A DNA stretch of 57,906 bases from Bryobacterales bacterium. GTDB taxonomy: Bacteria; Acidobacteriota; Terriglobia; Bryobacterales; Bryobacteraceae. The stretch spans positions 1 through 57,906 of the forward strand of contig PMTT01000542.1 of NCBI GenBank assembly GCA_003167275.1. The letters are read 5' to 3'. Positions within the stretch are counted from its first letter, which is position 1, and the number at the start of each line of letters is the position of its first letter. Of the stretch, positions 28,409-53,703 are shown piece after piece. The position numbers and the translations under genes were made by a program. The notes under the pieces were generated by a model. It was given only the letters and a program-made list of their open reading frames with translations. It was not told where the DNA came from and made no database searches.

Positions 28409-28511
28409 CCGCTCTGGAGAAGCTCATGTCCTGTCAGCAATGCGGTAAAAGAGATCTTGGAGTCGGACCGATTCTGTTTGGATATTCTTGCAACGCCAAA
28501 GGAGTTCTTGC

Positions 28512-30707
28512 ATGCTGCGACACGAATGCGTTCTTGTTTGTTTTCTGCTCGTAATCGGAGTGCCTGCCGCCAGCGCGCAGTGTTACACGTTTTCGAGCGG
28601 TTCGGCGGCGAGCTTAACCGTTAACATCACCCACCTTCCGCCTCCGACCCAATCGACGGTCGTTCCATGGATATATGACTACTCTTCTGATTCTGGGTTG
28701 GTTGCGGCTGTCAGTCTAAAGGTCGGCCAGACGGTGTATACTCCTGACCCAACGTCCGTTGCTCCCTTGATCGATGTGTCAGTTGGAGACGATCTCAGCT
28801 CCAGTTTCTCCTCAATGGACTTCAACGTGGCCTTTTCCAGCCCGAACTACATCATCGCTGGCGGCCTAGCGTCGGCATACTGGAACGGAAATTATTTTCC
28901 GAACGGCAGTTTGCCAGCTACGCTCCCTTCGCTCTCCAGTGCCCAAGATCCAATTTTGATCGTCAACGTGATCGGTCCATCCGGCGTGATCGTTGACCAG
29001 ACGTATGCGCTGACCTCGGTCACGAGTTGTTCGACTACGCCTCCCCCGCGGAGCCCGTCCCGGATTACCTCCGCGGGTGGATCATTCCAATCGGCAGTCG
29101 TCGGCACCACCTTCGCCTCTCCATTGCAAGCCACGGTTACGGACTCGTCCGGCAATCCCATCAGCGGCGTGACTGTGACGTTCACTGCACCTTTCAGCGG
29201 CGCCAGCGTCACCTTGTCAAGCGGCTCGGCCATTACCAACGCAATTGGTGTCGCGAGCGTTTCGGCAACGGCAAATAACGTGGCGGGCGGCTACTTCATT
29301 ACGGCCACTGTAGGAGCGCTTTCAACGTCGTTCTCGCTGACAAACCTACCTGTTTCGGGGCTTCCCCTCGGTGGCGATCTTGCACAGGGCCAGTTCGCCA
29401 CACAAAGCAGTACCCTGCCAGGTACGCCGCCCGCGAGCGCCGCCGTTGATGGCAACACTGACGGGGCTTTCTTCGATGGATCAGTCACGGCAACGAGCTT
29501 CGAAGCCAACCCCTGGTGGGAGGTGGACCTCGGCTCGCCCCTCGCCATCAGTTCGATTGCGGTCTGGAACCGGACCGATTGCTGCGGCTCCCGGCTCGAC
29601 GACTATTGGGTCTTCGTTTCCAATACGCCGTTTCTGAACACGGATACGCCCGCGATTCTTCAATTCCGGCCTGGAACGTTCGCCAGCCACCAGACCACGG
29701 TGCCAAGCCCTTCCGCGACAATCGCCCTGGGGGTGCAGGGCCGTTACGTGCGAATTCAGCTCAACAATCCCAATTACCTGAGCCTGGCTGAGGTGCAGGT
29801 ATTCGGTGGTGTCAATCTTGGGCAAGGGAAGACCGCGACGCAGAGCAGCACCCTTCCCGGCACACCGGGAGCCGGCGCGGCCGTAGATGGGAACACGGAC
29901 GGCAGCTTTTCCGATGGATCAGTTACGGCCACGAACTTTGACGCCACTCCTTGGTGGCAAGTGGACCTAGGCACTTCCGCCTCTATCAGTTCGATTGTCG
30001 TCTGGAACCGAACAGATTGTTGCGTCGGTCGGCTTAGCGACTATTGGGTGTTTGTTTCCGACACGCCGTTTCTCCCGACCGATAACCCGGCCACGCTACA
30101 GTTCCGTCCGGGGACCTTTGCAAGTCGCGAGACCAGTGCACCTAATCCGTCAACCGCAATTGCGGTTGGAGGGCAAGGGCGTTACGTCCGGGTGCAGTTG
30201 AACACCTCGAACTATCTGAGCCTTGCCGAAGTGCAGGTGGTCGGGATCATGAATGCGTCAAGTAGCAATGACATCGCATTGGGTAAATCTGCGAACCAGA
30301 GCAGCACGCTCCCCGGCACACCGCCAGCCGGAGTAGCCGTGGACGGCAATATCGATGGCAACTTCTTCGACGGCTCTGTTACGGCCACGAACATCGAGTC
30401 CAATCCGTGGTGGCAAGTTGATCTGGGTGCTTCACAAACCGTGAACTCGGTTATGATCTGGAATCGGACGGACTGTTGCAGCTCGCGTTTGGGCGACTAT
30501 TGGGTTTTCGTCTCGAACACACCGTTCCTCGATACGGATACACCTTTGACGCTGGCTTTCAGGCCGGGTACAGCGAGCAGTCATCAAACGGCCGCTCCCA
30601 ACCGGTCCGTGAGCATTCCGTTCGGCATACCCGGGCGTTACATTCGCGTGCAGTTGAACGGCCGCGACTACCTCAGCTTGGCTGAGGTGCAGGTGTCCGG
30701 ACAGTAG
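28512..30707 (+). CDS. secreted protein: Ig-like (Big_1-like) domain plus three tandem F-type-lectin/discoidin-like (galactose-binding-like) domains
   Basis: RBS AAGGAG precedes ATG 28512 and the signal peptide is CFLLVIGVPAASA. The block ATQSSTLPGTP..AAVDGN.DG.F.DGSVTAT....PWW.VDLG...I..I.VWNRTDCC..RL.DYWVFVS.TPF...RY.R.QLN...YLSLAEVQV occurs three times. Confidence 0.8.
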   Translation: MLRHECVLVCFLLVIGVPAASAQCYTFSSGSAASLTVNITHLPPPTQSTVVPWIYDYSSDSGLVAAVSLKVGQTVYTPDPTSVAPLIDVSVGDDLSSSFSSMDFNVAFSSPNYIIAGGLASAYWNGNYFPNGSLPATLPSLSSAQDPILIVNVIGPSGVIVDQTYALTSVTSCSTTPPPRSPSRITSAGGSFQSAVVGTTFASPLQATVTDSSGNPISGVTVTFTAPFSGASVTLSSGSAITNAIGVASVSATANNVAGGYFITATVGALSTSFSLTNLPVSGLPLGGDLAQGQFATQSSTLPGTPPASAAVDGNTDGAFFDGSVTATSFEANPWWEVDLGSPLAISSIAVWNRTDCCGSRLDDYWVFVSNTPFLNTDTPAILQFRPGTFASHQTTVPSPSATIALGVQGRYVRIQLNNPNYLSLAEVQVFGGVNLGQGKTATQSSTLPGTPGAGAAVDGNTDGSFSDGSVTATNFDATPWWQVDLGTSASISSIVVWNRTDCCVGRLSDYWVFVSDTPFLPTDNPATLQFRPGTFASRETSAPNPSTAIAVGGQGRYVRVQLNTSNYLSLAEVQVVGIMNASSSNDIALGKSANQSSTLPGTPPAGVAVDGNIDGNFFDGSVTATNIESNPWWQVDLGASQTVNSVMIWNRTDCCSSRLGDYWVFVSNTPFLDTDTPLTLAFRPGTASSHQTAAPNRSVSIPFGIPGRYIRVQLNGRDYLSLAEVQVSGQ

Positions 30708-30753: not shown

Positions 30754-31671
30754 CTACACTCGCAACTTGATCCCGTCGTTGGGCGCGTGGACCAGATCCT
30801 GCTTTGTGCCCAAATAGCGCTCGGTCGTTTGAACCGACGCGTGGCCCAGGAGCAACTGGATCTGCCCCAGTTCTCCGCCGGCCGCCCGACACAACTTCGC
30901 GAAGCTGCGCCTCAAATCGTGGGGGGCAATTCCGGGAACACCAGCGGCCGCCGCATACGGCCGCAAGAGCTGCCAGATGACCTTCTCGGACAAGCGGTCG
31001 CCGCAGACCTCGTCCCCGCGGTTGATGGGGCGGAGTACGTAACCCTCCACGATCCCGGCCGCCGCTGTCCAGGCGTCGATGGCGACCTTTACCCAGGTCG
31101 GCACCGGAATCGTGCGCACCCGCCCGTGCTTTCCGACGAGGTCTACGACGCACCAGCGGTTGTCCCGTTGCTGGATGTGCCTCATCGTCAGGGCGGCCAC
31201 CTCAGACCGTCGAAGCCCGCAGCCCAGGAGGATGGCTAGCATCGCTCGGTCACGCAGTCCCTTCTTGGTGGCGATGTCCGGCGCGCTCAGGAGTCGTTGG
31301 GCCTGTTCCAGGGATAACCAGTTGCCGACCCTTATGCCCTTCGACGCGACGCCCTTTACGCGCGTGATGCCGGCGGCCAGTTCCGGCGCCAGCAACCCGT
31401 TGTCAGCCGCCTCGATCGCGAGCTTCCGGACGGCGGTGATCCGGACGTTGATCGAGACGGACCCGAGCCCGCGGCTCTCAAGGACGACGCGCCAAGCGTT
31501 CACGGCCGCCTTCGTGAAGCCTGGCCGAGCTTCCTGGCCGAACCAGGAAATAAACTCGTCCAGGCCGAGGTTGTAGACCCTTCGGGTAATCGGGGAGGAA
31601 ACGCTGTCAAGGACCAACGCCTTCAGCCGGTGGAATTCGTTGTTCTGTGGAACCACAATCAAATCAGTCAT
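30754..31671 (-). CDS. XerC/XerD-like tyrosine recombinase
   Basis: 305 aa. Motifs are GCGLRRSEVAAL (Arg), APHDLRRSFAKL (HxxR) and LLGHASVQTTERYL (His...Tyr). dif-like site 1 lies directly upstream of its RBS. Confidence 0.9.
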   Translation of the reverse strand: MTDLIVVPQNNEFHRLKALVLDSVSSPITRRVYNLGLDEFISWFGQEARPGFTKAAVNAWRVVLESRGLGSVSINVRITAVRKLAIEAADNGLLAPELAAGITRVKGVASKGIRVGNWLSLEQAQRLLSAPDIATKKGLRDRAMLAILLGCGLRRSEVAALTMRHIQQRDNRWCVVDLVGKHGRVRTIPVPTWVKVAIDAWTAAAGIVEGYVLRPINRGDEVCGDRLSEKVIWQLLRPYAAAAGVPGIAPHDLRRSFAKLCRAAGGELGQIQLLLGHASVQTTERYLGTKQDLVHAPNDGIKLRV

Positions 31672-31946: not shown

Positions 31947-31990
31947 GTGGGCGCGGAGGGACTCGAACCCCGGACCTCCTGCGTGTGAAA
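31947..31990 (-). repeat. decayed tRNA 3'-half-like segment (anticodon loop to acceptor; Val-CAC-like)
   Basis: The reverse complement is CTTTCACACGCAGGAGGTCCGGGGTTCGAGTCCCTCCGCGCCCA. The T-loop TTCGAGT and acceptor 3' strand are present, but there is no matching 5' half or D-arm and the T-stem is imperfect. Confidence 0.6.
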
Positions 31991-32374
31991 GAGCGGCGTC
32001 GTCTCCAACGGCTCTTTTGGTTCTTACCTTCTGCTGTTGCTTCCAATGATCTGAAGCACCTGCTGTTGCCGGACGAATAAAGCTAATGCCCCCAACGATC
32101 CGGATTTTTGCACAGTTCTGACACGGTCCGAGAGCGGCAATCAATGCCGTTAAGCGGAGCGGGGAGTCCGGCCTTGTAGAGGGCATCGAACTATCGATAA
32201 TGTGGAGGAACCGGAGAGCCCGCGTCGGACAAGCCAGCGTGGGGTCCATGGACTTCCTTCTTTTTGCGCGTTAGCGGGCATCGAACAATACCGTGGGTAT
32301 TCCCGACGGCGGCAGATAGCCGGGTTGGGCTTTGAGATAACATCATTGATAGGCTTGGTCTAAAGAAACGGTGC

Positions 32375-33268
32375 ATGCTGACGCGGCATCCGCCGGAGGC
32401 GAATGGTGTGAACCTTAAATCCCTGTTGCGAGAATCGGACGAGATGACCGTTCAGCAGTGGCAGGCGTTTTTTCACGGGGTGTATGGTGCCCGAAATGAA
32501 GAACGCTTCCCGGCAGAATACGGCCTTTCGCGGATGTGGTTGCATTTGGTACAAGATATGGCGGCGCTGGCAAAGGGTATTCGCAAAAATGACGTCGCCC
32601 GGATGCTTCGGATGCTGCCACGCCTGTTTTGCTGGCTCTGCGGTTTTTGCACGAAGGCTGGATTTGAACTCGAAGAAATCGTGTGGCACTTCTTCCCGTA
32701 TGTCTGCCCAACATGTTGGAGTCCGACGTGTGCGTGCGGCGCCAACAAGAGGGTGTTTAGAGACGCGCCCCAGAAGGACGAAAAGACCTTGGCCGAGTTT
32801 AGGGAGGCGAACGCCGAGAAACGGCCTTCGACGCTTGATGGATTCGTCGTTATGTTTGCAGATGTGTATGGAAACCACTCCGAGTCGGGGAATCTGACCG
32901 ATGTCTACCTGCATTTCAGCGAGGAGGTTGGAGAAGTCGCCGAATGGATCAGAGTCGTCGAGAGCCTGAGTGATGGTCGGTCAGAAGCTCAGCAAGGTCT
33001 TACTTCAGAACTTGCCGACGTGTTTTCCTGGATGTGCAAATTGTGTTGGCGGATTAACTGCAATCTGCAAGGCTTCGGACCTTGGGCGGAGCACCAGTTC
33101 GGTAACGCGATTGATCAACGGCGGTTTGAAATTCGCTTTGCAGCCATTACCTCCCTGCAGTATGGTAATGGCTGCCCGGGTTGTGGACAGGCCGTTTGCG
33201 CAAGACAGTGCGAGGGATGGGACACTCGTTTGGCTAAGGCCAGCCATCAGGGCGGGGTGGTGGATTGA
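32375..33268 (+). CDS. tandem MazG-like (all-alpha NTP pyrophosphohydrolase) protein, each half followed by a Cys cluster
   Basis: The second half has the MazG signature LHFSEEVGEVAEWIR ... LTSELADVFSWMCKL. The first half aligns (LHLVQDMAALAKGIR) but lacks the acidic residues. The Cys clusters are CPTCWSPTCAC and CPGCGQAVCARQC. The start could instead be the downstream MTVQQW. Confidence 0.65.
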   Translation: MLTRHPPEANGVNLKSLLRESDEMTVQQWQAFFHGVYGARNEERFPAEYGLSRMWLHLVQDMAALAKGIRKNDVARMLRMLPRLFCWLCGFCTKAGFELEEIVWHFFPYVCPTCWSPTCACGANKRVFRDAPQKDEKTLAEFREANAEKRPSTLDGFVVMFADVYGNHSESGNLTDVYLHFSEEVGEVAEWIRVVESLSDGRSEAQQGLTSELADVFSWMCKLCWRINCNLQGFGPWAEHQFGNAIDQRRFEIRFAAITSLQYGNGCPGCGQAVCARQCEGWDTRLAKASHQGGVVD

Positions 33269-33320
33269 CGGGAACGTGAACAAATCAGCGAAGCTCTTTT
33301 CGCGCCTTTCTCCGACCAAT

Positions 33321-35576
33321 TCATAGGAATAGTGCCAATTGTTTTGGGCGCAGATCCACGTCGTTTTCTAATTCCAAAAGATCACTCGCTGCTTTCGCGA
33401 CGCGACCCATGCGGTTGAGGTCCATGTCTGGCGCGACAAAGACGTAACAAGTCCATAGGTTCATGTGAGCAGAATAGATCCGGCGGTACTGCTCTTCGTC
33501 TCGGTGAATTCTCGTAGTGATTGGATCAACACCCACGTATTGGCGAATTCGTTGTAGCCCTGGAGCTCTTGCCGCACAATAGAAGATCAGGTCGTCAGCG
33601 TGGACTCCGGCCTTGCCAGCGATCTCATTTTCAATTTTTGCGCGACCAGCCAGAGTGAACCATCCCTTCCCAGTTAGAAGTGTCAGTCGGTCCTGATAGT
33701 GGCTCCGATCAGGCTCACTTTCTCGCAACACGGGCGCAGCGAAGCTCTGCTTCCACACGTCTCTGCCGTTTGTACCAACAACCATCTCCACTAGTTTCTT
33801 CGCCAGCGGTCGTCCTGAGTTCCGCAAGAAATCCAGCAGGTCAATGTCGCCCATCGACTCGACCATTGGCTCAGTAAGTCGCGGCTTTCGTTTCGTCGAG
33901 AGAACATTGTAGACCGCTTTGCCGATCATGGCTCCGGCGGCGACTTTGACCGGATGGGCATACACTTTCAAGAACAGTGCAAATCGTTCGCGGAGAATCG
34001 ACTCGATCGCGAATTTGGCATCCACACGCACGCCGTGATGACCATACAACTCAGCGCGAACATCAGTGCGTTGGATGCTAAACTTCCTGTAAATCGCCGA
34101 GTCAATTCCATGATCGAGGCCACAATAGTAGGCGTCGCGATCAACGTAATCAAGAATATCGGCCCCGCAAGGCCCCTCTACGAGTTGAGAGATCCACGCT
34201 TGCTTCTCTGAATTGGGCTGCTTGTCAAAATGGGCCAATACGGCCAAGCCGACTTGACTCGAAGCGAGTAGCCGACCCAGCATGGATTGTGGCGATAGAA
34301 GGAGCCGTTCAATGCGCTCCTCATTTTCGTCGTGCCTCTTGAAAATACTCATCTCGTCCTCAAGCGCGTGCCCGTACGGAATGTGTGTCACGTCGTGCAA
34401 AAGGGCGTATGCCCTGACCACCTGCCGTTCATGACTGCCAAAGTGGGTGCCTGTTCTTTCCGAAAAGCGTCGCACGATCTCGCTGGCAACGTGCATTGTC
34501 CCGACGGCGTGACTGAAGCGCGTATGCTCCGCGCCCGGGTATACGAGGTGTGAAGTTCCAAGCTGCCGTATCCATCGCAGGCGCTGAAATTCCGGCGTGT
34601 CCATTAAGTCCCATTCAAAGTCGCTCATCGTTATGTCTGAATGAACTGGATCGCGGACGACGTGTGGAAAGTAGCCTCCTAAACTGTGTGGCATATCGGT
34701 GCCGTCGCTCAAAGGTTCCATTCTTGCCTTTACCTCTCTTAACTCCACGAGCGCCTGCCGGGCGGAAGGCCGCTTCGTATCATCCAGTTCAAGGAGCGCC
34801 CGGAAGAATTCGGATACGTCCCTCCTCACTTTATTATTGAGCTGCTGAATCGTAGGCGGTGTCACGGCCAGCATAAGATCGGTGAACTTGCCATCGTCCG
34901 CGTCGGCCGCGTAGTCCCATGGGAAAAAATTTGTCAGGAGAAGATACCCCAACACACCTACGGCAAACACGTCATGCACGGGTATCGCCTCGCCCGGATA
35001 CCTCAACTTAGTTGGCGGACTAAACTTGGAAGAGCCGGCACCGAAAAACGTTTCGGCATCTGCTGGTTGGCCGCGTCCTTTGCACATTCCGAAGTCGACC
35101 AGGGTCACCGCAGGCATTGTGTCAAACTCATTTCCGACCAATATATTCGCGTCTTTCACATCGCGATGGCAGATCTGGGCTTCGTGGATATGCGACAGTG
35201 CGTCCAGAACCGCCTCGGCGATGTGGAGCATTCTCATCTGGCCGATAGTGTCAAATTGTTTCCGCTGCCGCCCGACCGCCACACGCAGGTTTTCCCCCTC
35301 AGCGAAACTCATGGCGATGTACGGCCGTTCTTCGAGTTTGCCAGCCCCTATAAATCTTGGAATTGATCGAAGGTTTAGTGGCGACAGGCGCTCTAGTGCC
35401 CATCCTTCATTTTCGAACCGCTGTGGGCCGAAGGCTTCACTGTCAGCACGCAGCCACTTCACGGCGAGCTTTTCGCCGGCCAAGTCCTCGACAAGGTACG
35501 TGTGGGCGTATGAACCGCTGCCCAAGAGCCGCAGTACTCGAAAGTTGTCGAACTTCGTAGGTTCTGGCGGGTTCAA
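33321..35576 (-). CDS. fusion protein: N-terminal Ser/Thr protein kinase + C-terminal SAMHD1-type HD-domain dNTP triphosphohydrolase-like domain
   Basis: Kinase motifs are LGSGSYAHTY, LAVKWL, CHRDVKDANILV and LVDFGMC. HD motifs are VRDPVHSDI...DTPEFQRLRWIRQLG..HLVYPGAEHTRFSHAVG, ALLHDVTHIPYGHALE and DILDYVDRDAYYCGL. This block order characterises SAMHD1/COG1078 enzymes. Confidence 0.85.
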   Translation of the reverse strand: MNPPEPTKFDNFRVLRLLGSGSYAHTYLVEDLAGEKLAVKWLRADSEAFGPQRFENEGWALERLSPLNLRSIPRFIGAGKLEERPYIAMSFAEGENLRVAVGRQRKQFDTIGQMRMLHIAEAVLDALSHIHEAQICHRDVKDANILVGNEFDTMPAVTLVDFGMCKGRGQPADAETFFGAGSSKFSPPTKLRYPGEAIPVHDVFAVGVLGYLLLTNFFPWDYAADADDGKFTDLMLAVTPPTIQQLNNKVRRDVSEFFRALLELDDTKRPSARQALVELREVKARMEPLSDGTDMPHSLGGYFPHVVRDPVHSDITMSDFEWDLMDTPEFQRLRWIRQLGTSHLVYPGAEHTRFSHAVGTMHVASEIVRRFSERTGTHFGSHERQVVRAYALLHDVTHIPYGHALEDEMSIFKRHDENEERIERLLLSPQSMLGRLLASSQVGLAVLAHFDKQPNSEKQAWISQLVEGPCGADILDYVDRDAYYCGLDHGIDSAIYRKFSIQRTDVRAELYGHHGVRVDAKFAIESILRERFALFLKVYAHPVKVAAGAMIGKAVYNVLSTKRKPRLTEPMVESMGDIDLLDFLRNSGRPLAKKLVEMVVGTNGRDVWKQSFAAPVLRESEPDRSHYQDRLTLLTGKGWFTLAGRAKIENEIAGKAGVHADDLIFYCAARAPGLQRIRQYVGVDPITTRIHRDEEQYRRIYSAHMNLWTCYVFVAPDMDLNRMGRVAKAASDLLELENDVDLRPKQLALFL

Positions 35577-35775
35577 TCGCTAATCTCCGGGCAGCAAACG
35601 CTGGCGAGGTCATGGTATATCCGACGCATCAGGCGTGAATACCCAGTTCAGCCCTCAATACCTATTGTGGCACGCCCGAGATCCTAGCCGCGATTCGGCA
35701 GTTGGCACTGCCGACTATGGATGATGGCCCCGTGGGCCTTTAGAAGCTCCCTAGCGGTCTCTTAGCCCTAGCGAT

Positions 35776-36255
35776 ATGATGAATCATCAGGAGGCAGGTT
35801 TGACACTGTACTGGGCAGGACCCTTATTTACACAGGCAGAAAGAATATGGAATCGCCGGTGTGCGAGCGCTCTGCGCCAGATGGGATATTCAGTTCTGCT
35901 GCCGCAAGAGGAAGCCATTCGATTCACGAATCCCGAGGGGTTCGATGCGAAGGGGATTGCCGAGCTCTGCTACCTGCAAGCTCTAGAGTGTGACGTCATG
36001 GTCGTGGTGCTCGACGGTGCAGACAGCGATAGTGGCGCTAGTTTGGAAGCTGGCATCAAGATCGGCCATAAGCGAGCATCGAATGTCGCGGGTATGATTA
36101 TCGGTCTTCGGACGGACTTCCGCGCATCGGAAGACGGGCAGCTCAACGCGATGTTCAGGTTGCTTGACAGGGTTGTCTATTTCCCGTCGTTCAATGAAGA
36201 CCCCGAGGCGCTTTGCGGGATGCTTCACCAAGCCATCCTCAGCTTGACGAAATGA
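35776..36255 (+). CDS. nucleoside 2-deoxyribosyltransferase-like (NDT/Rcl-DNPH1 superfamily) protein
   Basis: LTLYWAGPLFTQAERIWN is the hallmark N-terminal motif. The candidate catalytic Glu lies in DVMVVVLDGADSDSGASLEAGIKIG. Confidence 0.75.
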   Translation: MMNHQEAGLTLYWAGPLFTQAERIWNRRCASALRQMGYSVLLPQEEAIRFTNPEGFDAKGIAELCYLQALECDVMVVVLDGADSDSGASLEAGIKIGHKRASNVAGMIIGLRTDFRASEDGQLNAMFRLLDRVVYFPSFNEDPEALCGMLHQAILSLTK

Positions 36256-36383
36256 CGGATCTAACCTTACGACAGGTTTTGACACAGTCCAGCCGAACTG
36301 AAGGGGTTTTGGCGCAGTTTGTGTGAAAGCTTGAACCGCAGCCGGCCGATTAATCTAATAAACTATTTAGAATCAAGTGAAGA

Positions 36384-36428
36384 TGGTGGGCGCGGCAGGA
36401 CTCGAGCCTGCGACCTCCTGCGTGTGAA
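36384..36428 (-). repeat. tRNA 3'-half-like segment ending in CCA (Val-CAC-like), imperfect direct repeat of 31947-31990
   Basis: The reverse complement is TTCACACGCAGGAGGTCGCAGGCTCGAGTCCTGCCGCGCCCACCA. The T-stem GCAGG/CCTGC is perfect but the T-loop is CTC rather than TTC, and no 5' half is present. Confidence 0.65.
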
Positions 36429-37711: not shown

Positions 37712-38110
37712 CTATTGTCGATTGGCGTCGACGAGCATCTGCCGCGCCTGGCAGCATCGCACGACGTCCTCAATCTGCAGATCGTATCCAGGGTCGTCGA
37801 ATATGCTCCACACGGCGTCCGGATCCTCTGGCATCTGGTCCACCAGCGCGTTCAGTTGTGCGCGGTGTTCAAGATCGCAGGCGGCGGCCAGCGCCTTCAT
37901 GTAGGCATGGAACTCTGTGGGCCGGGCATCGTAGGTGGCGAGCATCTTGGCGGCGAAGGCGACAGGATCGACGCCGGCCTTGACGCGCTTCCATCGCTTC
38001 CAACCGTTGCCCTGGTTCCGCAATACGGCGCCGTCGCTCATGACCGCCACTCGGCAATCGCTGTACTCCGTTCGGGCCAACTCCGCTCCGTGTTCGTTCA
38101 GTCTCGCCAT
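37712..38110 (-). CDS. hypothetical protein
   Basis: 132-aa ORF with balanced composition. No domain recognised. Confidence 0.5.
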   Translation of the reverse strand: MARLNEHGAELARTEYSDCRVAVMSDGAVLRNQGNGWKRWKRVKAGVDPVAFAAKMLATYDARPTEFHAYMKALAAACDLEHRAQLNALVDQMPEDPDAVWSIFDDPGYDLQIEDVVRCCQARQMLVDANRQ

Positions 38111-39865: not shown

Positions 39866-41401
39866 GTGATATCATCGTCGGTGGCTTCTAGCAAGGAAAA
39901 GGTGGCTGATGTGATCGACAGGAAGAAGACTTCCCGCCGCAGCATTTTCGCCGGAATTGCAGCACTCGTCGTGCACGGCCTTGCGCGAAATGGGCGGGCC
40001 GCCGAAACCCGGCCATTGGCGGAAAGACTGGCCGCCTACGCGGCTGCGCTGCGTTACGAAGATCTCGATGCCGCCACCATCGAGCGCGTCAAATCGCATG
40101 TCATCGACACGCTCGGCTGCGGCATCGCTGCCTTCGATGAGCGGCCCGTGCGCGTCTGCCGCGACATTGCACAGAGCGTGCAAGGAGGCGCCACCATCAT
40201 TGGCACGACGCGCAAGACTTCTCCCGATCTTGCCGCTTTCGTCAATGGCGCTGCGAGCCGGTATTACGATCTGAACGACACCTATGTCGGCAGAATGGCC
40301 AGCCGAACGGCCAGCCACCCGAGCGACCATATCGCCCCGTGCCTTGCCGTCGCTGAATGCGAAGGCGGACGCGGCCGTGACCTCATCACGGCGATTGTGC
40401 TTGCCTACGAGATCGATTGCCGCCTGGTGGACGCTCTCGATATCAACTCGCGCGGCTGGGACGCACCGGTGTTCAGTCTTCCGGCGGTAGCGCTCGCAGC
40501 CGGCAAGCTAATGATGCTGGATGTGGGGAAGCTGACCGAGGCGGTCAACATCGCGATCAACGATCACATTTCCATGGGACAGACGCGTAGGCAGGTGCTC
40601 TCTGACTGGAAGGGCCTCTCGGATGGCGAAGCCTCGCGCAACGCCGTGTTCGCGGCGATGCTGGCGCGCGGCGGCCTGACCGGACCGGCGCCGATTTTCG
40701 AGGGCATACTCGGCCTATTCCAGCAGGTCTCGGGAGTGGCGAGTATCGACGTGACGAAATTCGGCGGCCCTAGCAATCCGTTCCGCATCAATCAATGCGG
40801 CATGAAGGCCTATCCTGCGGTGATATACGGCCAGACCGCGATCGTCGCGGCCACGGCGATCGCCGATGAGGTGACCAAGCTTTCGCCCGACAAGCCGGCA
40901 GCGCTCGAACGAATCACCTCCATCGAAGTTGCTACGTCAAAGACCGGGCTGGTGCAGACCGGTACCGATCGCGAGAAGTGGGCGCCCGTGACGCGCGATA
41001 CCGCCGATCATTCCTTGCCCTACCTCACAGCGCGCGCCATGTTTGATGGCGACATCAACAATGAAAGCTACGCGCAGGCGAAGTTGAAGGAACCGCGCAT
41101 CCTCGCCTTCATGCAGAAGATTACAGTCGTGGAAGATCCGGTGCTCACCGCCCGGTCCGGTGACGCCGTGCCGACGCGCATAACCGCGATTTTGGCGGAT
41201 GGGCAGCGCTTCAGCAGAGAAGTCAACGACCTCCCTGGCTTTGCCCGCAGGCCAATGCAAAGACCGGAGGTCGACCGCAAATTCCGCGGCAACGTCGCCA
41301 AGCGCTGGCCGCGCGAGAAAACCGATGCCGTTCTCCGATCACTCTGGGTGCTGGAGAACACGCAGGACATCGGCGCGCTGCTTGCGGCGCTGACGGTTTG
41401 A
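39866..41401 (+). CDS. MmgE/PrpD-family protein with a Tat-like N-terminal signal
   Basis: LAAYAAALRYEDLDAATIERVKSHVIDTLGCGIAAFDE is typical of MmgE/PrpD. The N-terminus KKTSRRSIFAGIAALVVHGLA looks like a twin-arginine signal. Confidence 0.8.
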   Translation: MISSSVASSKEKVADVIDRKKTSRRSIFAGIAALVVHGLARNGRAAETRPLAERLAAYAAALRYEDLDAATIERVKSHVIDTLGCGIAAFDERPVRVCRDIAQSVQGGATIIGTTRKTSPDLAAFVNGAASRYYDLNDTYVGRMASRTASHPSDHIAPCLAVAECEGGRGRDLITAIVLAYEIDCRLVDALDINSRGWDAPVFSLPAVALAAGKLMMLDVGKLTEAVNIAINDHISMGQTRRQVLSDWKGLSDGEASRNAVFAAMLARGGLTGPAPIFEGILGLFQQVSGVASIDVTKFGGPSNPFRINQCGMKAYPAVIYGQTAIVAATAIADEVTKLSPDKPAALERITSIEVATSKTGLVQTGTDREKWAPVTRDTADHSLPYLTARAMFDGDINNESYAQAKLKEPRILAFMQKITVVEDPVLTARSGDAVPTRITAILADGQRFSREVNDLPGFARRPMQRPEVDRKFRGNVAKRWPREKTDAVLRSLWVLENTQDIGALLAALTV

Positions 41402-41523: not shown

Positions 41524-41545
41524 GATAAGAGGGAATATCGGTAGC
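41524..41545 (+). repeat. dif-like site copy 4: GATAA-GAGGGA-ATATCGGTAGC
   Basis: Read directly between the PrpD-like and receiver genes. Confidence 0.7.
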
Positions 41546-41601
41546 TTCCTCAGACCGGGAGCCCGTCCGCCCGCCGCTGAAGTGCAGCCCGCAGTTCCCG
41601 C

Positions 41602-42045
41602 ATGCCCCAGTCGGTCATGCCGGAACCGATCTTTCGCAAGGGAGTCGAACAGCCATTGCGGATACTGGTGGCCGAATGTGAACCCGCTCAGAGCATGATC
41701 GCCTGGCTCGAAGAGCAAGGACACTCGGTCAGCCTCGTGCAGGACGGCCAATCGGCATTGGATGCTCTGGAGCGTGAACTGTTCGATGCCGCCTTGATCG
41801 CCATCCAGATCCCCGTGAGGAACGGCTACGAAGTAACTCGAACGATACGGGAGCGCGAGCGCAAACGCGCCTGCCGGCGTGTTCCCATGATCGCCTTGAT
41901 CGCTGACCCGATGAAGGGCGATCGGGAAATCTGTCTGGAAGCCGGACTCGACGACTGTCTTCCCAAGCCCGTCAAAACTCAGGGGCTTGAATCGATGTTG
42001 AACTCACTGCCGTCAGGCGTCTTCAGGCGCGCTGAGTGCGCCTAA
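41602..42045 (+). CDS. stand-alone receiver (CheY-like) domain lacking the phospho-acceptor Asp
   Basis: The receiver pattern is LRILVAECEP...FDAALIAIQIPVRNGYE...MIALIAD...LPKPV. The acidic pair reads EC instead of DD, and the acceptor position reads A (LIAIQIP instead of L.D..MP). Confidence 0.7.
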   Translation: MPQSVMPEPIFRKGVEQPLRILVAECEPAQSMIAWLEEQGHSVSLVQDGQSALDALERELFDAALIAIQIPVRNGYEVTRTIRERERKRACRRVPMIALIADPMKGDREICLEAGLDDCLPKPVKTQGLESMLNSLPSGVFRRAECA

Positions 42046-42335
42046 TGATGGGCGAGTTGAAGACAGCACAGCAGAGGGGTGTCGACGAACCAGCTCGCGT
42101 TGCCAAGATCAGCCCCACAACTCTCTACCGCTGGATGAAGGACCTGGAGTTCGACCGAGCCTACCGGGCGGCACGGCGCGCCACGTTTTCGCAATCGGTC
42201 GCTCGCTTGCAGCAGGCTGCCCGCCCGGCGGCTGCAGTCCCGCGAGGCCAGCCGACGCTACCAGCGGAGCGAAAGGGGCCGACACTGTCACCTGCAGCGG
42301 CAGCGTCGCTAACCGGCACCGCCAGGCCCACGTGA
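42036..42335 (+). pseudogene. partial, inverted paralog of the HTH gene at 46408-46803
   Basis: ISPTTLYRWMKDLEFDRAYRAARRATFSQSVARLQQAA parallels ISVATLLRWQKLPEFKKAYMEARRAAHGQSIARLQQAT. The remainder is Pro/Ala-rich and non-homologous. Confidence 0.45.
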
Positions 42336-42486: not shown

Positions 42487-42748
42487 TCAAAAAGCGACGT
42501 TTCTACGTGATCGCCAACATATAGCCCGCCGCATCAAGGCTGCCCGGAGTTCACTCATCGTCCATCCAAACGCCCGTCCCATCACCTCGGCAAGGCTCTC
42601 GTTCCCCTCGGGCACGAACCCCTTGCTGGCGAGCCAGCGTGCGATCGTCTGGCGCCGGCGACGGGCACGGATGCGTCGGCTGCTTCCACGCAAGCGTCCG
42701 ATTTAAGCGGTGTGGGCGTCGCCTGATTGCCTTGTTAGTGCCTACCAC
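42487..42748 (-). pseudogene. frameshifted copy of the small RRLxxLE-family gene at 44964-45206
   Basis: 126 bp (42521-42646) are identical to 44983-45108. A 1-nt insertion (gcgatcGtctgg vs gcgatctctgg) then splits the reading frame into ORFs 42487-42693 and 42551-42748. Confidence 0.7.
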
Positions 42749-43117
42749 GATCTGCCTTTCCTGGCCGGTTTCGATGATTGAACCGGTCGCCTATGGCGGA
42801 TTACGTCGGCAAGCGTTAGGCCGAGCAGGGACTCGGGCTTCGTCCGCACCACTCCAGGCGGCTGGCAGCCAGCTACTGCGCCCGCATAGGCCCCACGCAC
42901 GAGGGGCGGCACGGCGCCGCCGAATGGCTTCGACCGCCGCCACCTGTTCCCTGCGCCTGCGAGTGATGATTTCCAACGGGCAAAGAGAAGGTCTGACGCA
43001 TTCAGAAGACGTACCCAAGGGGACGTCTAGAGGCGATTCGTGCTAGTCTCTAGACCAAGATCCAACCGGACAGCACGCCGCGGACGCTGGCAAGACCAGC
43101 GAGCGTGCTGGCCCTAC

Positions 43118-43750
43118 ATGGGTCAAGTTCCCTTGTTTGATAACCTTCGGTACATCAATATGGACCTCGACGAACAAGACTGGTCTTCTGTTGAGATGAC
43201 GCCTCGTGCACGCCAACGATACGATAGATTTCTGGCTCAATACAGACGATACTTAAAGAAGGTACAGGAGTTTCCACTGGCGCTCTTGGTTTGGGGGCCA
43301 GGGCCGTCTGGCGGCGACCTGTATAGGAAGCGCTTGGAGATTCGGGCGCAGCTCCGGGACCGAGGTTTCGCTGCAGTGTTCAGCGAGGAGGTGGAACGAG
43401 ACTGCCCAGTGCCAGATATGTCTTTGAGAGTGAAGGAACTCCTACAACTTTGCTCCGCCGATCTGGTTGTGGTCATCCAGGCGTCATTCGGTTCCGTTGC
43501 GGAAGTCCACGATTTCGCCAGCCTAGGACAAGCAATTGGAGGGAAATTGATGATCTTCATAGATAGCACGGTCGTGGGCGGGTACAGTAGTTTGGGGGCG
43601 CTAAGGGAACTTGGCCTTCAGTTCGGGAACGTTCACTATTTTGAGTATCCGAAAGACGTTGTGGAGTGTCACTTGTCGAGGAAAGTAATCGAACGGGCTG
43701 AGGCACTGCGACATGCAGCTTGGCAAAGAAAGAATCTGAAGAATCTGTAG
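43118..43750 (+). CDS. NDT/SLOG/TIR-class Rossmannoid domain protein (putative effector)
   Basis: LALLVWGPGPSGGDLYRKRLEIRAQLRDRGFAAVFSEE ... ADLVVVIQASFGSVAEVHDF aligns by eye with the NDT-like protein at 35776 (LYWAGPLF...; DVMVVVLDG...SGASLEAG). This includes the conserved Glu. The start (43118 vs 43160) is uncertain. Confidence 0.5.
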   Translation: MGQVPLFDNLRYINMDLDEQDWSSVEMTPRARQRYDRFLAQYRRYLKKVQEFPLALLVWGPGPSGGDLYRKRLEIRAQLRDRGFAAVFSEEVERDCPVPDMSLRVKELLQLCSADLVVVIQASFGSVAEVHDFASLGQAIGGKLMIFIDSTVVGGYSSLGALRELGLQFGNVHYFEYPKDVVECHLSRKVIERAEALRHAAWQRKNLKNL

Positions 43751-43761
43751 AATAGTCGACC

Positions 43762-44883
43762 ATGGATCCGGACGACCTCTTGCTATATTACGCACGGAAC
43801 AGACTAGTAATTGAAGTCGCTAAGGACGCTCTGCATTTGTTCCTCTTGGACTATCTTGCGGCTTATGGCCCGCTATCTTACGGTCAGGTTTTAGCCGATA
43901 TCTTCATGGACCAGCATAAAGCATCATCAATCCTTAATGATCTGTTGGGTGCGGGCCTTGTGTCCGCGCGCGACGATTCTTGGGTTGTTTCGCGCCATGG
44001 CAAGAATCTGCTCGGCCAGTTACTCGAATCATCCGTACCAGAGCAAGATTCGGGGCAAAGCGAGCAAACTCTTAACGATAATCGCAGCAGGTATCCCGGT
44101 ACGGAACGCGCTCCAAGAACTCCGGACAGAACCGATGTGACACAACCCGAGGGTTATGTGCACTCCATCAATGAGGGCGCTGCGTTGGCGACCAGCATTA
44201 AGGTAGAGTCGCTCTTAGAAAAATGCTGGCTGCAGGTTTCCTACATTCTGGATGCGCTCGGAAACACCCGGACAGATCGGGGCGAAGCTCTGCCTCAAGG
44301 AACGTTCGGGAAGTTTCGAACTTCCGAAGAGGGCGGCAAGCTAATCTTCAATATCGTAATACCCAAGGGCTTTCCCTCCTCCTGGTTGCGGAGCATCGGT
44401 ATCGACCGTCCGGACTGTTCGTTACGGGCCGGTGCGGAAGAGTCGGGAGATCCGGAACATCATATATTGAAAATCTCGCTCGACCAGTTTCCGCCGGCTA
44501 TGAAGGAACACCTCGATTTCTTCCGGATTGTGGAGAATAGCATTGGTGTGGTGGATGATCTTCTCGACCCGAGGGCCTTTTTTGGCTATGGCTTATACTC
44601 CGCGTCTGTTAAGGGAGACAATTACGTTTTCAGAATTCCTGCGGATATTAGCTTTCGTCCGTTCGCCGCCTTTATCGGAATCGACCGCAAAAAGGTAATT
44701 CGGGAAGCCGTGGTCGATGAAGCGGGTGTGGCCGTTTGCGATCAGCGGGACATTCCTTTGCATAGCTTCAGCGTGGCCATTGCTTCCGTGCGAAACCATT
44801 TCGCGGCCCAATCAGCCCAAGACATAGATGGGCCTCCCGACACCAGAGTTACTCATACAACTCACATCACACTGACTAACTAA
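43762..44883 (+). CDS. hypothetical protein with an N-terminal winged-helix-like domain
   Basis: LFLLDYLAAYGPLSYGQVLADIFMDQHKASSILNDLLGAGLVSARDDSWVVSRHG looks like a wHTH. The ~250-aa C-terminal region is unassigned. The gene lies 12 nt after the upstream stop. Confidence 0.55.
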   Translation: MDPDDLLLYYARNRLVIEVAKDALHLFLLDYLAAYGPLSYGQVLADIFMDQHKASSILNDLLGAGLVSARDDSWVVSRHGKNLLGQLLESSVPEQDSGQSEQTLNDNRSRYPGTERAPRTPDRTDVTQPEGYVHSINEGAALATSIKVESLLEKCWLQVSYILDALGNTRTDRGEALPQGTFGKFRTSEEGGKLIFNIVIPKGFPSSWLRSIGIDRPDCSLRAGAEESGDPEHHILKISLDQFPPAMKEHLDFFRIVENSIGVVDDLLDPRAFFGYGLYSASVKGDNYVFRIPADISFRPFAAFIGIDRKKVIREAVVDEAGVAVCDQRDIPLHSFSVAIASVRNHFAAQSAQDIDGPPDTRVTHTTHITLTN

Positions 44884-44942
44884 CGGATCGATCTGGCAGT
44901 CGGTGATATGACTGACTAGTGATACCGCCCGAACAGCCTGGC

Positions 44943-44964
44943 GTTATCTCTACATATCGGTAGC
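44943..44964 (+). repeat. dif-like site copy 5: GTTAT-CTCTAC-ATATCGGTAGC
   Basis: Read directly at the 3' end of the 44964-45206 gene. A degenerate relative (ttctac-gtgatcgccaac) lies at the equivalent place next to the other repeat (~42501-42518). Confidence 0.7.
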
Positions 44965-45206
44965 TATTCGCCCGGCAGCCCCATAGCCCGCCGCATCAAG
45001 GCTGCCCGGAGTTCACTCATCGTCCATCCAAACGCCCGTCCCATCACCTCGGCAAGGCTCTCGTTCCCCTCGGGCACGAACCCCTTGCTGGCGAGCCAGC
45101 GTGCGATCTCTGGCGCCGGCGAGGGGCACGGAGGCCTCGGCTGCTTCCACGCAAGCGTCCGCTCTAAGCGTTGAAGGCGTCGGCTGAGGGCCTTGTTGCC
45201 TACCAT
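44964..45206 (-). CDS. small RRLxxLE-motif protein (family member 5)
   Basis: The N-terminus is MVGNKALSRRLQRLERTLAW. It is the last gene of a translationally coupled chain. Confidence 0.6.
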   Translation of the reverse strand: MVGNKALSRRLQRLERTLAWKQPRPPCPSPAPEIARWLASKGFVPEGNESLAEVMGRAFGWTMSELRAALMRRAMGLPGE

Positions 45207-45562
45207 GCTTTTATCTGCCTTCCCTCGACTTCTTCGATGATGTCGGCCGCAAGCAGTCGTTGGGCGATATCGAATCGCAGCTCTGCCGGCAGGTCTGCGA
45301 GCGAGACGCTTAGAGTCTGGCGCAATCTGGTTAGGCCCGTGAGAGCAAAGCCGATTCTACCCGTCGGGCCTCTGTCGCTGCGCCCCATCGACTGCTGCTC
45401 CTGCCAGACATCCTGCTCTTGCGGCTCCGCCAGCAACTTCAGGGCGGATTGCCACTCGCCGGCGACGAGCCTCTCTATGATCGCTTCGTCCACTGAAGGG
45501 GCGGCGACCGTGAACCCGAATCTCCGCTCAAGCTTTCGGAGCCGTGAGATCACCGCCTTCAC
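45200..45562 (-). CDS. small RRLxxLE-motif protein (family member 4)
   Basis: The N-terminus is MKAVISRLRKLERRFG. It overlaps both neighbours. Confidence 0.6.
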   Translation of the reverse strand: MKAVISRLRKLERRFGFTVAAPSVDEAIIERLVAGEWQSALKLLAEPQEQDVWQEQQSMGRSDRGPTGRIGFALTGLTRLRQTLSVSLADLPAELRFDIAQRLLAADIIEEVEGRQIKAW

Positions 45563-45816
45563 GCCGCCTCCACCGGAAAGCTCGCGATGAATCGGTCCAA
45601 GTCTTCGTCCGCCAGGTCCTCGCGGCCGCCATCCAGTTCCACAACCTCGATCAGCAGCCCGTTACGACCGAGCACTCGCCTGCACGTTGATGTCTCCAGC
45701 CGCGGTGGGCCGCAAACGCACCGCACGACGACTCGCAATGTCTCCCGGGGCCGTCCGTCGGCTGTAAAGGCGGACAGCGCCTCCAGCCGGCGAAGGCGTC
45801 TGATTATCGTCTTCAT
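45559..45816 (-). CDS. small RRLxxLE-motif protein (family member 3)
   Basis: The N-terminus is MKTIIRRLRRLEALSAF, with 4-nt ATGA overlaps. Confidence 0.6.
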   Translation of the reverse strand: MKTIIRRLRRLEALSAFTADGRPRETLRVVVRCVCGPPRLETSTCRRVLGRNGLLIEVVELDGGREDLADEDLDRFIASFPVEAA

Positions 45817-46058
45817 GGAGTCGTGTCCTCGGCTGGGATCGAGCCGAATAGCGATCCGGGGTTGTCTGCGTGCCGTAGGACAGCGCGCACGGCCTCAAGC
45901 GGAAAGAGAACGGCGGGCCGTCTCCTCTCCGAGTCCATCGCCCAGTCGTAGATCTGCCGATCCCAATATGACAACCACTTCTGCGAGTGCGGCACCAGCC
46001 CGCTCGGGTCTGTCAAGGCCGACTCGAGCTTCTTGAGGCGCCGTTGAAGATTCGTCAT
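45813..46058 (-). CDS. small RRLxxLE-motif protein (family member 2)
   Basis: The N-terminus is MTNLQRRLKKLESALTD, with 4-nt overlaps. Confidence 0.6.
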   Translation of the reverse strand: MTNLQRRLKKLESALTDPSGLVPHSQKWLSYWDRQIYDWAMDSERRRPAVLFPLEAVRAVLRHADNPGSLFGSIPAEDTTP

Positions 46059-46407: not shown

Positions 46408-46803
46408 TCACTTCCCCGAGGACTTCGACAACTCGGCCGCGGCCTCCAGTTCGGCCACCCGGGTTTCGATGTCCTCCAATTCGATCGCCTTTGCCGAGTG
46501 GTCCAGCACACTGTCCGCGGCACGGACTTTGACGGAGGCGGGCGTAGCCGGATCGACCATGACCTTCAGCAGCGTGGTGACCGCCGCGCTGGTAGCTTGC
46601 TGGAGCCTGGCGATGGATTGGCCGTGGGCGGCGCGCCGCGCTTCCATGTACGCCTTTTTGAACTCCGGCAGCTTCTGCCATCGGAGCAGCGTGGCGACCG
46701 AGATCCCCGCCGCCCGCGCAGCTTCCTCCTGGTTCTTCTGCGTGAGCAGGGCGGCGATGGCCGCCTCCATCTTCCGGTTGAATTTCGCTCCGTGGCCCTT
46801 CAT
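46408..46803 (-). CDS. HTH-containing hypothetical protein (resembles phage small-terminase-like / regulatory HTH proteins)
   Basis: The segment is QEEAARAAGISVATLLRWQKLPEFKKAYMEARR. A coiled-coil tail ends ELEDIETRVAELEAAAE. Confidence 0.55.
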   Translation of the reverse strand: MKGHGAKFNRKMEAAIAALLTQKNQEEAARAAGISVATLLRWQKLPEFKKAYMEARRAAHGQSIARLQQATSAAVTTLLKVMVDPATPASVKVRAADSVLDHSAKAIELEDIETRVAELEAAAELSKSSGK

Positions 46804-49723: not shown

Positions 49724-51031
49724 TCATGCGGCCACCTGGCGACGTTCTGCGGCGACCTGGTCGAACGTACGCCCGTCGCCGTCAAGGGTGGCTTGCTTCC
49801 CGCTGAGCGTCTGCCAGCGCTGGATTACGACATCCACGTACTTCGGATCCAATTCGATACCCACGCAGACGCGCTCCGTCAACTCCGCGGCCGCCAGCGT
49901 CGTGCCACTGCCAAGGAAGGGCTCGTAAACCAGTTCGCCTCGCTTCGTGTGGTTCAAGATGGGGCGCCGCATCAGATCGACAGGCTTCTGGGTGGGATGA
50001 TCGAACTTCTCCTCGTCACTGCCGCCCATGATGAACTTTGGCGATGCGGAATCCCAGATGGTCGAGTTCTCCCCAGGCTTCCCGAACCACGGCGCGTTCT
50101 TCTTGCGGACGTACCAGCAGGGTTCGTGTTGATACCAATAATGGGTTCGGGTCAGCACGGTCCGGCCTTTGTTCCAAATAATCTGCTGAGGATACAGAAA
50201 CCCGATCCGAAGAAGCCCGTTCAGGACTTCGCGCGTGAAGATTGAGGCGTGCCACACGTAAGCGATCTGAAGGCTCGGCACCAGTTCGAAGGCCTCCGAC
50301 CAATCGGCGCGCGTGTCGCCGGAGATGGTGGTCTCGGTATGGCCAGCAGTTCGATTCTTCATGTAGCTCGCCTCGGCCGGCCCGCAGCCATTGAGCCCGG
50401 CGCGGTCGCGCCATTCGGAGTCCAACTGGATCCCATAGGGCGGGTCAGTCACCATAAGGGCCGGCGTGCGCTCTCCCAGGAGTTGCGCCACGGCAGCAGC
50501 GCTGGTGGAATCCGCGCAGAGAACCCGATGTGCGCCGCAGAGCCACAGGTCGCCGGCACGGGAGGCCGGGTTCTCGGGCAGCGGCGGAACGGCGTTCGCT
50601 TTCTCGTCGTCCTCGTCGGGGAGCAACAGGTCGTCCAGTTCCTTTGGGTCGAAGCCGGTCAAGCTGAGGTCGAAATCCGCTTCGTTGAGTTCCTGCAGCT
50701 CCAACGCGAGCAACTCTTCATCCCAGTCCGCCCACGTCACGGACCGGTTTACCATCAGGCGAAACGCTTTGACCTGCGCCGACGACCATTCGTCGCAAAG
50801 AATCACCGGTACTTCGGCGATGCGCAGCTTCTTCGCCGCTTTCAGGCGCAGGTGGCCGTCGACCACCTCACCGTCGCTGCGCGCGAGCACCGGGATCTTG
50901 AAGCCGAATTCCCGGATGCTGCTGCACATGCGGTCCACGACAGCGTCGTTCTTCCTGGGGTTGCGGGCGTAGAACACCAAGCGGTCGATCGGCCAGATTT
51001 GGATTTGCGGCGTCGGCGGAGACGTAATCAT
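49724..51031 (-). CDS. ParB-like nuclease domain fused to an N6/N4 DNA methyltransferase
   Basis: The ParB_N-like segment is ARNPRKNDAVVDRMCSSIREFGFKIPVLA..GEVVDGHLRLKAA. The methylase motifs are MVTDPPYG and HPTQKPVDLM...EPFLGSGTT. Confidence 0.85.
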   Translation of the reverse strand: MITSPPTPQIQIWPIDRLVFYARNPRKNDAVVDRMCSSIREFGFKIPVLARSDGEVVDGHLRLKAAKKLRIAEVPVILCDEWSSAQVKAFRLMVNRSVTWADWDEELLALELQELNEADFDLSLTGFDPKELDDLLLPDEDDEKANAVPPLPENPASRAGDLWLCGAHRVLCADSTSAAAVAQLLGERTPALMVTDPPYGIQLDSEWRDRAGLNGCGPAEASYMKNRTAGHTETTISGDTRADWSEAFELVPSLQIAYVWHASIFTREVLNGLLRIGFLYPQQIIWNKGRTVLTRTHYWYQHEPCWYVRKKNAPWFGKPGENSTIWDSASPKFIMGGSDEEKFDHPTQKPVDLMRRPILNHTKRGELVYEPFLGSGTTLAAAELTERVCVGIELDPKYVDVVIQRWQTLSGKQATLDGDGRTFDQVAAERRQVAA

Positions 51032-53627: not shown

Positions 53628-53703
53628 TGGTGGACCTGGTCGGGTTCGAACCGACGACCTCTTCCATGCCATGGAAGCGCGCTCCCAACTGCGCCACAGG
53701 CCC
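53628..53703 (-). tRNA. tRNA-Ala (anticodon GGC)
   Basis: The 76-nt cloverleaf was folded by hand: GGGCCTG TG GCGC AGTTGGGA GCGC G CTTCC ATGGCAT GGAAG AGGTC GTCGG TTCGAAC CCGAC CAGGTCC A CCA. It has the G3:U70 Ala identity pair and an encoded CCA. Confidence 0.9.

Follow-up and report, generated by a model that had tools for sequence, protein, structure and literature searches.

The 57,906-nt contig PMTT01000542.1 of a Bryobacterales bacterium (GenBank assembly GCA_003167275.1), called the window here over its full length, carries a two-gene operon whose first gene, A, is probably a distant relative of the N-glycosidase effector of type II-A retrons (Ec86/Eco1) that has kept the glutamate at the catalytic position. 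The second gene, B, begins with a winged helix-turn-helix (wHTH) domain. We favour, at slightly better than even confidence, the explanation that an operon of A and a wHTH gene with an attached tail was acquired within the cargo of a mobile element, that A is an N-glycosidase controlled by the wHTH protein, and that the direct repeats around the pair are homologues of g1, a small gene of the element. A more far-reaching proposal is put forward tentatively and with considerable doubt: A and its wHTH-X partner might form a previously undescribed modular sensor-effector system spanning several phyla, in which a cousin of the Eco1 glycosidase, independent of reverse transcriptase (RT), is switched by a wHTH adaptor and an interchangeable tail sets what is sensed. 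If this holds, the pair would establish a new class of system for immunity or stress signalling, and would show how a retron effector could have predated the retron or existed independently of it.

Two plus-strand open reading frames lie between the repeat copies, A (43040, 43118 or 43160 to 43750) and B (43762-44883), 11 nt apart. The start at 43118 originally assigned to A does open a reading frame, but the ATG at 43160, giving 196 aa, is the more probable start: it equals the database gene call (P0001), and the N-termini and conserved residues of fifteen homologues of about 200 aa agree with it. Residues of A are nevertheless numbered here from 43118. Invariant in the fifteen homologues are, among others, W59, G60, P61, G62, S89, E90, D115, S123, G125, E129, H131 and D132, of which Glu129, at the catalytic position, lies in the motif SFGSVAEVHDF. 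In the AlphaFold2 model (pLDDT 84), A is a five-stranded flavodoxin-like alpha/beta domain preceded by a long N-terminal helix, and at 196-210 aa the protein ends with the Rossmannoid core and one further helix.

When the model was compared with the PDB by Foldseek, the best match was the retron Ec86/Eco1 effector (7xjg_J, E=4.6e-5, TMq 0.54; also 8qbl_E). The TIR domain of TLR1 ranked third (E=1.3e-3), and human DNPH1 and bacterial nucleoside 2-deoxyribosyltransferases (NDTs) followed; 6evs and 8pqr were also among the matches that bear on an NDT fold. The A-family profile (A1) likewise found the retron Eco1 effector as its best PDB sequence (E=0.19), with aaDlivvlqaSyGSvAEvhDF aligned to avDviilfpeSPGSFTELGAF of Eco1, and by this alignment Glu129 of A would be the counterpart of Eco1 Glu106. 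The PDB title of 8qbl reads 'Retron-Eco1 filament with inactive effector (E106A)', and because it names the E106A effector as inactive, Glu106 is taken to be needed for activity. Two PADLOC NDT_II-A models matched 13 of the 15 A-family members, the best with E=2.7e-6. Gene A had no Pfam (E<=0.1), NCBIfam or PHROG match, and did not reach the gathering threshold of PF05014, which the neighbouring NDT at 35776-36255 passes (48.9 bits, 8e-13). The original prediction had aligned A with this neighbour by eye; BLASTP gave no alignment, whereas hhalign recovered a weak one of sensible topology over beta1-beta3 (probability 57 %, P=1e-4). Its broader assignment of A to the NDT/TIR class of Rossmannoid proteins, with a conserved glutamate in GSVAE, agrees with the model, the structural matches and the profile, and the retron effector, which it had cited as an analogy, came out as the closest known relative by both structure and PADLOC hidden Markov models (HMMs). 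On these models, A appears to be a new small family of the NDT/TIR fold class that is closest to the type II-A retron effectors.

The likeness to the effectors of Ec86/Eco1 and St85 includes a shared motif, hD-hhhh-x-S-x-G-S-x-x-E, and the association with a domain of DNA-binding type. The differences are equally clear. Gene A encodes about 200 aa and does not have the fused C-terminal DNA-binding half of the effector (a protein of about 300 aa), the wHTH here is carried by the protein encoded downstream, whose tail varies, and has no sequence similarity that could be detected with the Eco1 effector, and neither an RT nor an msr/msd non-coding RNA is found nearby. To our knowledge, type II-A effectors are known only within RT-msDNA complexes. 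In precomputed gene tables, no RVT Pfam annotation was found within 10 kb on either side of g1-g2, and Rfam at its gathering threshold gave no msr/msd RNA in 30-54 kb, where a tRNA-Ala was the only match; with no RT and no such RNA nearby, a retron as the identity of the A-B locus was rejected. Nor was an RT present among the 25 Pfam families displayed of the 49 in the neighbourhoods of A outside Chloroflexi, or in locus L001. With the NDT and DNPH1 families (PF05014, PF15891), A shares the flavodoxin-like fold (Foldseek E about 2e-3 to 2e-2). Its glycine-rich loop after beta1 (WGPG) and the acidic residue that follows the 'DhhhV' strand correspond to those of the PF05014 protein in the window (loop AGPLF), but a long helix at the N-terminus and another at the C-terminus are additional in A. 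The TIR NADases (Thoeris ThsB, Pycsar PycTIR and the TIR domains of Toll-like receptors) have the same fold class, and one A-family member weakly matches PycTIR (E=0.018). A has no TIR Pfam match, however, the context of its glutamate motif fits NDTs and retron effectors instead, and the locus has no ThsA-like or cyclase partner.

The family was surveyed in forty-five further A loci from genomes and metagenomes, which span Anaerolineae, Acidobacteriota, a Caulobacteraceae metagenome-assembled genome (MAG) and an ANME-1 archaeon. Where the sequence reaches far enough beyond A, the next gene in the same orientation almost always begins with this wHTH (about 40 loci). The spacing between the two ranges from -40 to +17 nt, with a 4-nt overlap in at least 11 loci, a geometry that suggests that A and its partner are often translationally coupled. 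The partners are 200-740 aa long and share the N-terminal consensus NLLELYRxHRDEIDxLxD..LF.L.F....G......L...LG.....L...L..L.R..L.........T..G...L.ELG, while their tails differ. In Anaerolineae and other Chloroflexota the wHTH is followed by a proline-rich linker, one transmembrane segment at about residue 120-160 and an ectodomain (CarboxypepD_reg, beta-propeller, LysM, CBM96, PEGA or SdrD_B). The partners outside Chloroflexota are soluble, except for that of L031, in which leucine-rich repeats (LRR) follow predicted transmembrane segments. Two acidobacterial partners (L012:6540-7637 from a Bryobacteraceae MAG and L018:6540-7685 from a Blastocatellia MAG) fuse the wHTH to a complete extracytoplasmic function (ECF) sigma factor with regions r2 and r4, which is an unusual architecture. 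The L040 tail consists of pentapeptide repeats, and the partner in the ANME-1 archaeon (L026) carries kinase-like and ORC/CDC6-like domains. Even next to the closest homologues of A, those of L060 and L061 (59-65 % identity), the partner has this wHTH followed by an unrelated tail. In some Chloroflexota loci (L014:115-576, L035:10-210) a second, diverged A-like gene of about 22-32 % identity was seen upstream of the pair.

Gene B is a fusion of the partner wHTH, a linker and an orphan C-terminal domain, Bc. A profile of 25 partner N-termini (A5) matched the wHTH of CggR (7oyk, E=3.4e-5), 8pvt (1.1e-3), NolR and many MarR proteins, and also ArsR and iron-repressor structures, in agreement with the wHTH that had been proposed for B. 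The N-terminus of B as a single sequence gave only sub-threshold matches (MarR_2, Csa3, ArsR), and B had no Pfam, NCBIfam or PHROG match other than these sub-threshold helix-turn-helix hits. The AlphaFold2 model of this N-terminal domain has the order of three helices, a beta-hairpin and a helix, at a pLDDT of only 50-75, and in tblastn the domain is 34-38 % identical to the partner N-termini of L060 and L061. The linker has no homologue that spans it, residues 93-148 have a pLDDT below 50, and B has no transmembrane segment. For Bc, the model is better: between residues 150 and 355 the pLDDT is mostly 78-95, falling lower around 220-229 and 260-279. Its homologues (P0017-P0035, 61-77 % identity, about 240 aa) cover only residues of about 141-373, start at the equivalent of about residue 141, and are stand-alone genes in Bryobacteraceae MAGs, none of which adjoins an A homologue. 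Among 1.84 billion representative proteins Bc forms a single cluster at 50 % identity and has no relative beyond it; the C-terminal region thus fits no known family, as had been noted, in searches of PDB sequences, PDB folds, BFVD folds and these representatives. Matches of Bc to LAGLIDADG and MotA-like proteins were of low probability, with TM below 0.2, and were rejected.

Because the rest of the partner varies from locus to locus, the conserved unit is A plus the wHTH of about 95 aa and not A plus the whole of B. The two genes had been expected to be co-conserved, and this stands for A and a wHTH gene, but the C-terminal two-thirds of B lie beside A only in the window. The tail is freely exchanged across phyla, the module exchanged in the window being an orphan Bryobacteraceae domain. 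A catalytic domain related to that of the type II-A effectors is here detached from any retron and paired instead with its own wHTH adaptor, whose input domains can be exchanged. No description of the A and wHTH pair was found in the literature, where only work on retron effectors and general surveys of conflict systems were recovered.

According to PMC12673091, the Eco1 effector hydrolyses NAD(P)+ as an N-glycosidase, and by analogy activated A would cleave an N-glycosidic bond in NAD(P)+ or a nucleotide. The wHTH would be the adaptor through which A is bound and controlled, or would bind DNA, or both, while the variable C-terminal module would supply the input. The pair would then be an effector of the NDT/TIR class with a nucleic-acid-binding partner, the twist being a relative of a retron effector without the retron and with a plug-and-play wHTH adaptor. 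Given the position in mobile-element cargo, a role in conflict would be the most likely one, either in defence of the abortive-infection type or in addiction to the element; defence in the window is plausible but unproven. If confirmed, the pair would add a new pair of protein families in Anaerolineae, Acidobacteriota, a Caulobacteraceae MAG and an ANME-1 archaeon, provide a simple two-gene system for studying the regulation of NDT-type N-glycosidases, and link free-standing NDT-like enzymes with retron toxins in evolution.

Several observations weigh against this explanation. The window copy of A alone matches PADLOC NDT_II-A with E=0.041 and 11.3 bits, which is below any sensible HMM threshold, and its TM-score to the Eco1 effector (0.54) is modest. 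Bc gives no functional clue; neither PDB nor BFVD contained a fold that matches it (TM below 0.2), and a search of PDB sequences found nothing similar. The wHTH may do no more than regulate transcription of the operon. In 13 Anaerolineae/Chloroflexota loci the pair is followed by uvrB and other flanking genes are shared too; this points to vertical inheritance at a fixed chromosomal site, which looks housekeeping-like rather than like a defence island. In 12 other loci, outside Chloroflexota, the neighbours are mostly housekeeping genes (ThiC, an aminoacyl-tRNA synthetase, an amidase), along with some insertion sequence elements and genes for a resolvase, for a D12 methylase and for a PIN protein. 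Whether such pairs sit in defence islands had been named as a point to check, and the picture is mixed: in the window the cargo contains a PD-T4-6-like kinase-HD protein, a true NDT and a methyltransferase, but elsewhere uvrB synteny and housekeeping neighbours prevail.

The same neighbourhoods favour a signalling function without conflict, in which the wHTH partner is a transcription factor that is either membrane-tethered or otherwise input-coupled in a ToxR-like way, or fused to an ECF sigma factor, and A makes or destroys its small-molecule cue, the window copy being merely a transferred variant. The Chloroflexi partners, with a cytoplasmic N-terminal wHTH, one transmembrane segment and an extracytoplasmic domain (LysM, CBM96, PEGA or propeller), resemble the ToxR/CadC-like regulators, whose extracytoplasmic domain binds ligands, and the acidobacterial sigma-factor fusions would fit as well. 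On the other hand, the partner wHTH is like those of CggR, MarR and ArsR and not OmpR-like, its pairing with the NDT-like gene is constant, and B in the window has no membrane segment. The nearest relatives of A by structure and HMM are retron toxins, and the window copy and its closest relatives are in mobile contexts, namely an element with an integrase and a terminase-small-like gene, a large serine recombinase adjoining the pair of L060, and a DDE transposase next to which P0009 is truncated. The tails of the partners include sensor-type repeats (LRR, pentapeptide, WD40) and are swapped rapidly. Such repeats and rapid swapping of tails are typical of conflict systems. We regard the signalling alternative as unlikely.

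It is less probable still that the pair is a toxin-antitoxin or addiction module, in which A is the toxin, the wHTH protein is both antitoxin and autorepressor on an inverted repeat upstream of A, and the pair stabilises the element. A tightly linked pair of an enzyme with a toxin-like fold and a DNA-binding protein in mobile-element cargo would suit such a module, but the partners are large, with variable sensor-like or extracellular tails unlike those of antitoxins, and the Anaerolineae loci show the pair in synteny on the chromosome. The 8-bp inverted repeat, for which a possible operator function had been suggested, is present at 43025-43055 and is statistically unremarkable: the window contains 71 perfect 8-nt inverted repeats with spacers of 3-30 nt (1.23 per kb, with an expectation of 0.18 in 150 nt), TCTAGA is about as frequent as expected, and the repeat is not conserved upstream of the A homologues in L060 and L061. 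The operator role was rejected as unsupported. A second perfect 8-nt inverted repeat (43071-43078 and 43103-43110, with a 24-nt spacer) lies between the first one and the start codons of A.

The operon is horizontally acquired. Its GC content is 0.50-0.53 as against 0.64-0.65 in the adjacent kilobases (42-43 kb and 45-47 kb), in line with the AT-richness reported earlier, and tblastn of A and B found no paralogues of either in the window. The direct repeats on its two sides had been described correctly: 42521-42646 and 44983-45108 are 100 % identical over 126 nt, past a 1-nt offset the similarity continues at 88 % (42648-42736 and 45109-45197) and then, at a weaker 79 %, to 42778 and 45241, and an extra G at 42647 puts the small gene of the left copy out of frame while the right copy is intact. 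The extra G is absent from the right copy and from the orthologues in two related elements (L062, L063). The left gene, g1', is split into 42551-42748 and 42487-42693, with its RRLxxLE motif degraded. The repeats are not an assembly duplication, an origin that had been named as one to check, since the whole arrangement recurs with 100 % identity in independent assemblies (ERZ27254066, a 95-kb MEGAHIT contig; ERZ28655047, a 26.5-kb scaffold; and several JGI/Logan contigs). The ERZ28655047 scaffold (L053/L056) also shows a 267-nt tandem duplication that splits an MmgE/PrpD gene, relative to window 40077-40343, either a strain variant or a scaffolding artefact.

What did not stand is the interpretation of the repeats as the signature of cassette insertion. 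In related elements g1 is a single-copy backbone gene, and the repeats are two g1 homologues, one intact and the other a pseudogene that, on the simplest reading, would derive from a second, decayed element or from an old partial duplication. The 5' part of g1' is only 80-88 % identical to g1, nearly as diverged as the orthologues in other elements (72-75 %), and g1' lacks the last 6 codons of g1 and the motif downstream. A run of 126 straight matches is far beyond chance at the surrounding divergence of 12-20 % (0.88^126 is about 1e-7); the tract would be a mark of homogenisation by gene conversion or of a recombination crossover. The 3' end of g1 is present once more as a third, diverged fragment (41534-41604) just upstream of a response-regulator gene, which would imply an earlier or repeated rearrangement at the same hotspot. 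Also to the left of g1', an inverted partial copy of the terminase-small-like gene is 74 % identical to the version in L062 as against 57 % to the intact copy of the window itself, suggesting a remnant of a second, related and decayed element.

These features make it very improbable that the repeats of about 230 bp were generated by the insertion itself, through target duplication or Campbell-type integration of a g1-bearing circle. Direct repeats with a 126-nt identical core do flank an AT-rich cassette, and related elements do have a single g1 followed by other cargo, as such a history would require. The identity is nevertheless mosaic, the copies are homologues of a backbone gene, about 250 nt of unrelated GC-rich DNA separate the left repeat from the AT-rich segment, the terminase-small-like fragment is closer to the copy of another element, and the list of open reading frames shows no transposase or recombinase in the cassette; a target-site duplication was ruled out. 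The precise site before insertion could not be reconstructed, as relatives with a single g1 exist and their cargo is unrelated. The repeats are thus explained as a side effect of related mobile elements recombining where cargo is exchanged.

The element itself was delimited by comparison with four related elements (L062-L065), which share with the window a backbone of the methyltransferase, DUF3489, the terminase-small-like gene, g4, g3, (g2) and g1; a DUF6900 gene also belongs to this backbone. The homology ends about 22 nt past the g1 stop codon (window 44941). Orthologues of g1 are 60-84 % identical, and g1 is the last conserved gene before cargo that differs among the elements (an ECF sigma factor with a kinase, or an IS66 remnant). 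In L063 a conserved 132-aa gene resumes after the cargo, equivalent to window 37712-38110. Because backbone homology stops after g1 and the cargo differs, the region of about 38.3-44.9 kb can be taken as a cargo hotspot, with the A-B operon as its first module. Scans of viral_contigs with g1 and the terminase-small-like protein gave no matches. Coordinates of the features are collected in Table 1.

Table 1 Features of the window that bear on the A-B operon and the surrounding mobile element
Feature	Position	Strand	Remarks
Tyrosine integrase	30754-31671		part of the integrated mobile region
Third, diverged g1 3'-end fragment with downstream motif	41534-41604	-	blastn to L062 10189-10259, 79 %
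Inverted partial terminase-small-like helix-turn-helix copy	42036-42335	+	weak helix-turn-helix Pfam matches
g1', frameshifted pseudogene of g1	42487-42748	-	carries the left repeat, 42521-42778
8-bp inverted repeat, GTCTAGAG-N15-CTCTAGAC	43025-43055		upstream of A
Gene A, putative N-glycosidase of NDT/TIR fold	43160-43750	+	196 aa; alternative starts 43118, 43040
B, N-terminal wHTH	43762-44046	+	about 95 residues; conserved partner domain of A-family genes
B, linker	44047-44190	+	about 48 residues; low-complexity, predicted disordered
B, C-terminal domain (Bc)	44191-44883	+	residues about 144-373; orphan family
ATATCGGTAGC copy	44954-44964	+	abuts the g1 stop codon at the cargo boundary
g1, intact	44964-45206	-	80 aa, N-terminal RRLxxLE; last backbone gene; carries the right repeat
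Right repeat	44983-45241		within/around intact g1
Terminase-small-like helix-turn-helix gene, intact	46408-46803	-	terminase small subunit PHROGs, E=2.8e-8
ParB-N6/N4 methyltransferase	49724-51031		backbone
tRNA-Ala	53628-53703		only Rfam match in 30-54 kb

The 11-nt motif ATATCGGTAGC occurs nine times in the window with at most one mismatch (at 8050, 26308, 31692, 36769, 38219, 39491, 41535, 44954 and 57407), against 0.31 expected. The copies are mostly intergenic and co-oriented with the flanking genes; several lie at the borders of cargo modules and one is 21 nt upstream of the integrase start. A promoter, a regulatory element and a recombination site are all possible roles for the motif. 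An integron-like reading was considered as well; the cassettes are multi-gene and bidirectional, and copies of the motif also lie outside the island.

Other cargo in the window includes the kinase-HD protein (PADLOC PD-T4-6-like, 4e-33), the true NDT and a MazG-like protein. Two 43-nt direct repeats (31947-31989 and 36386-36428), which are 86 % identical and resemble tRNA 3' ends, bracket an AT-richer cassette beside the tyrosine integrase that holds the MazG-like, Pkinase+HD and NDT genes (32375-36255). The stretch 31947-36428 has the appearance of a small islet that integrated by way of att-like ends and may carry defence genes. At 44964-46058 there are four small minus-strand genes (80, 120, 85 and 81 aa), which have only an N-terminal RRLxxLE-type motif in common; the array g4, g3, (g2), g1 is conserved downstream of the terminase-small-like gene in related elements and has no family match. 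Finally, the gene at 28488-30707 contains three tandem repeats of about 300 nt (29370-30563, 66-73 % identity), which correspond to F5/8 type C (NedA-like galactose-binding) domains.

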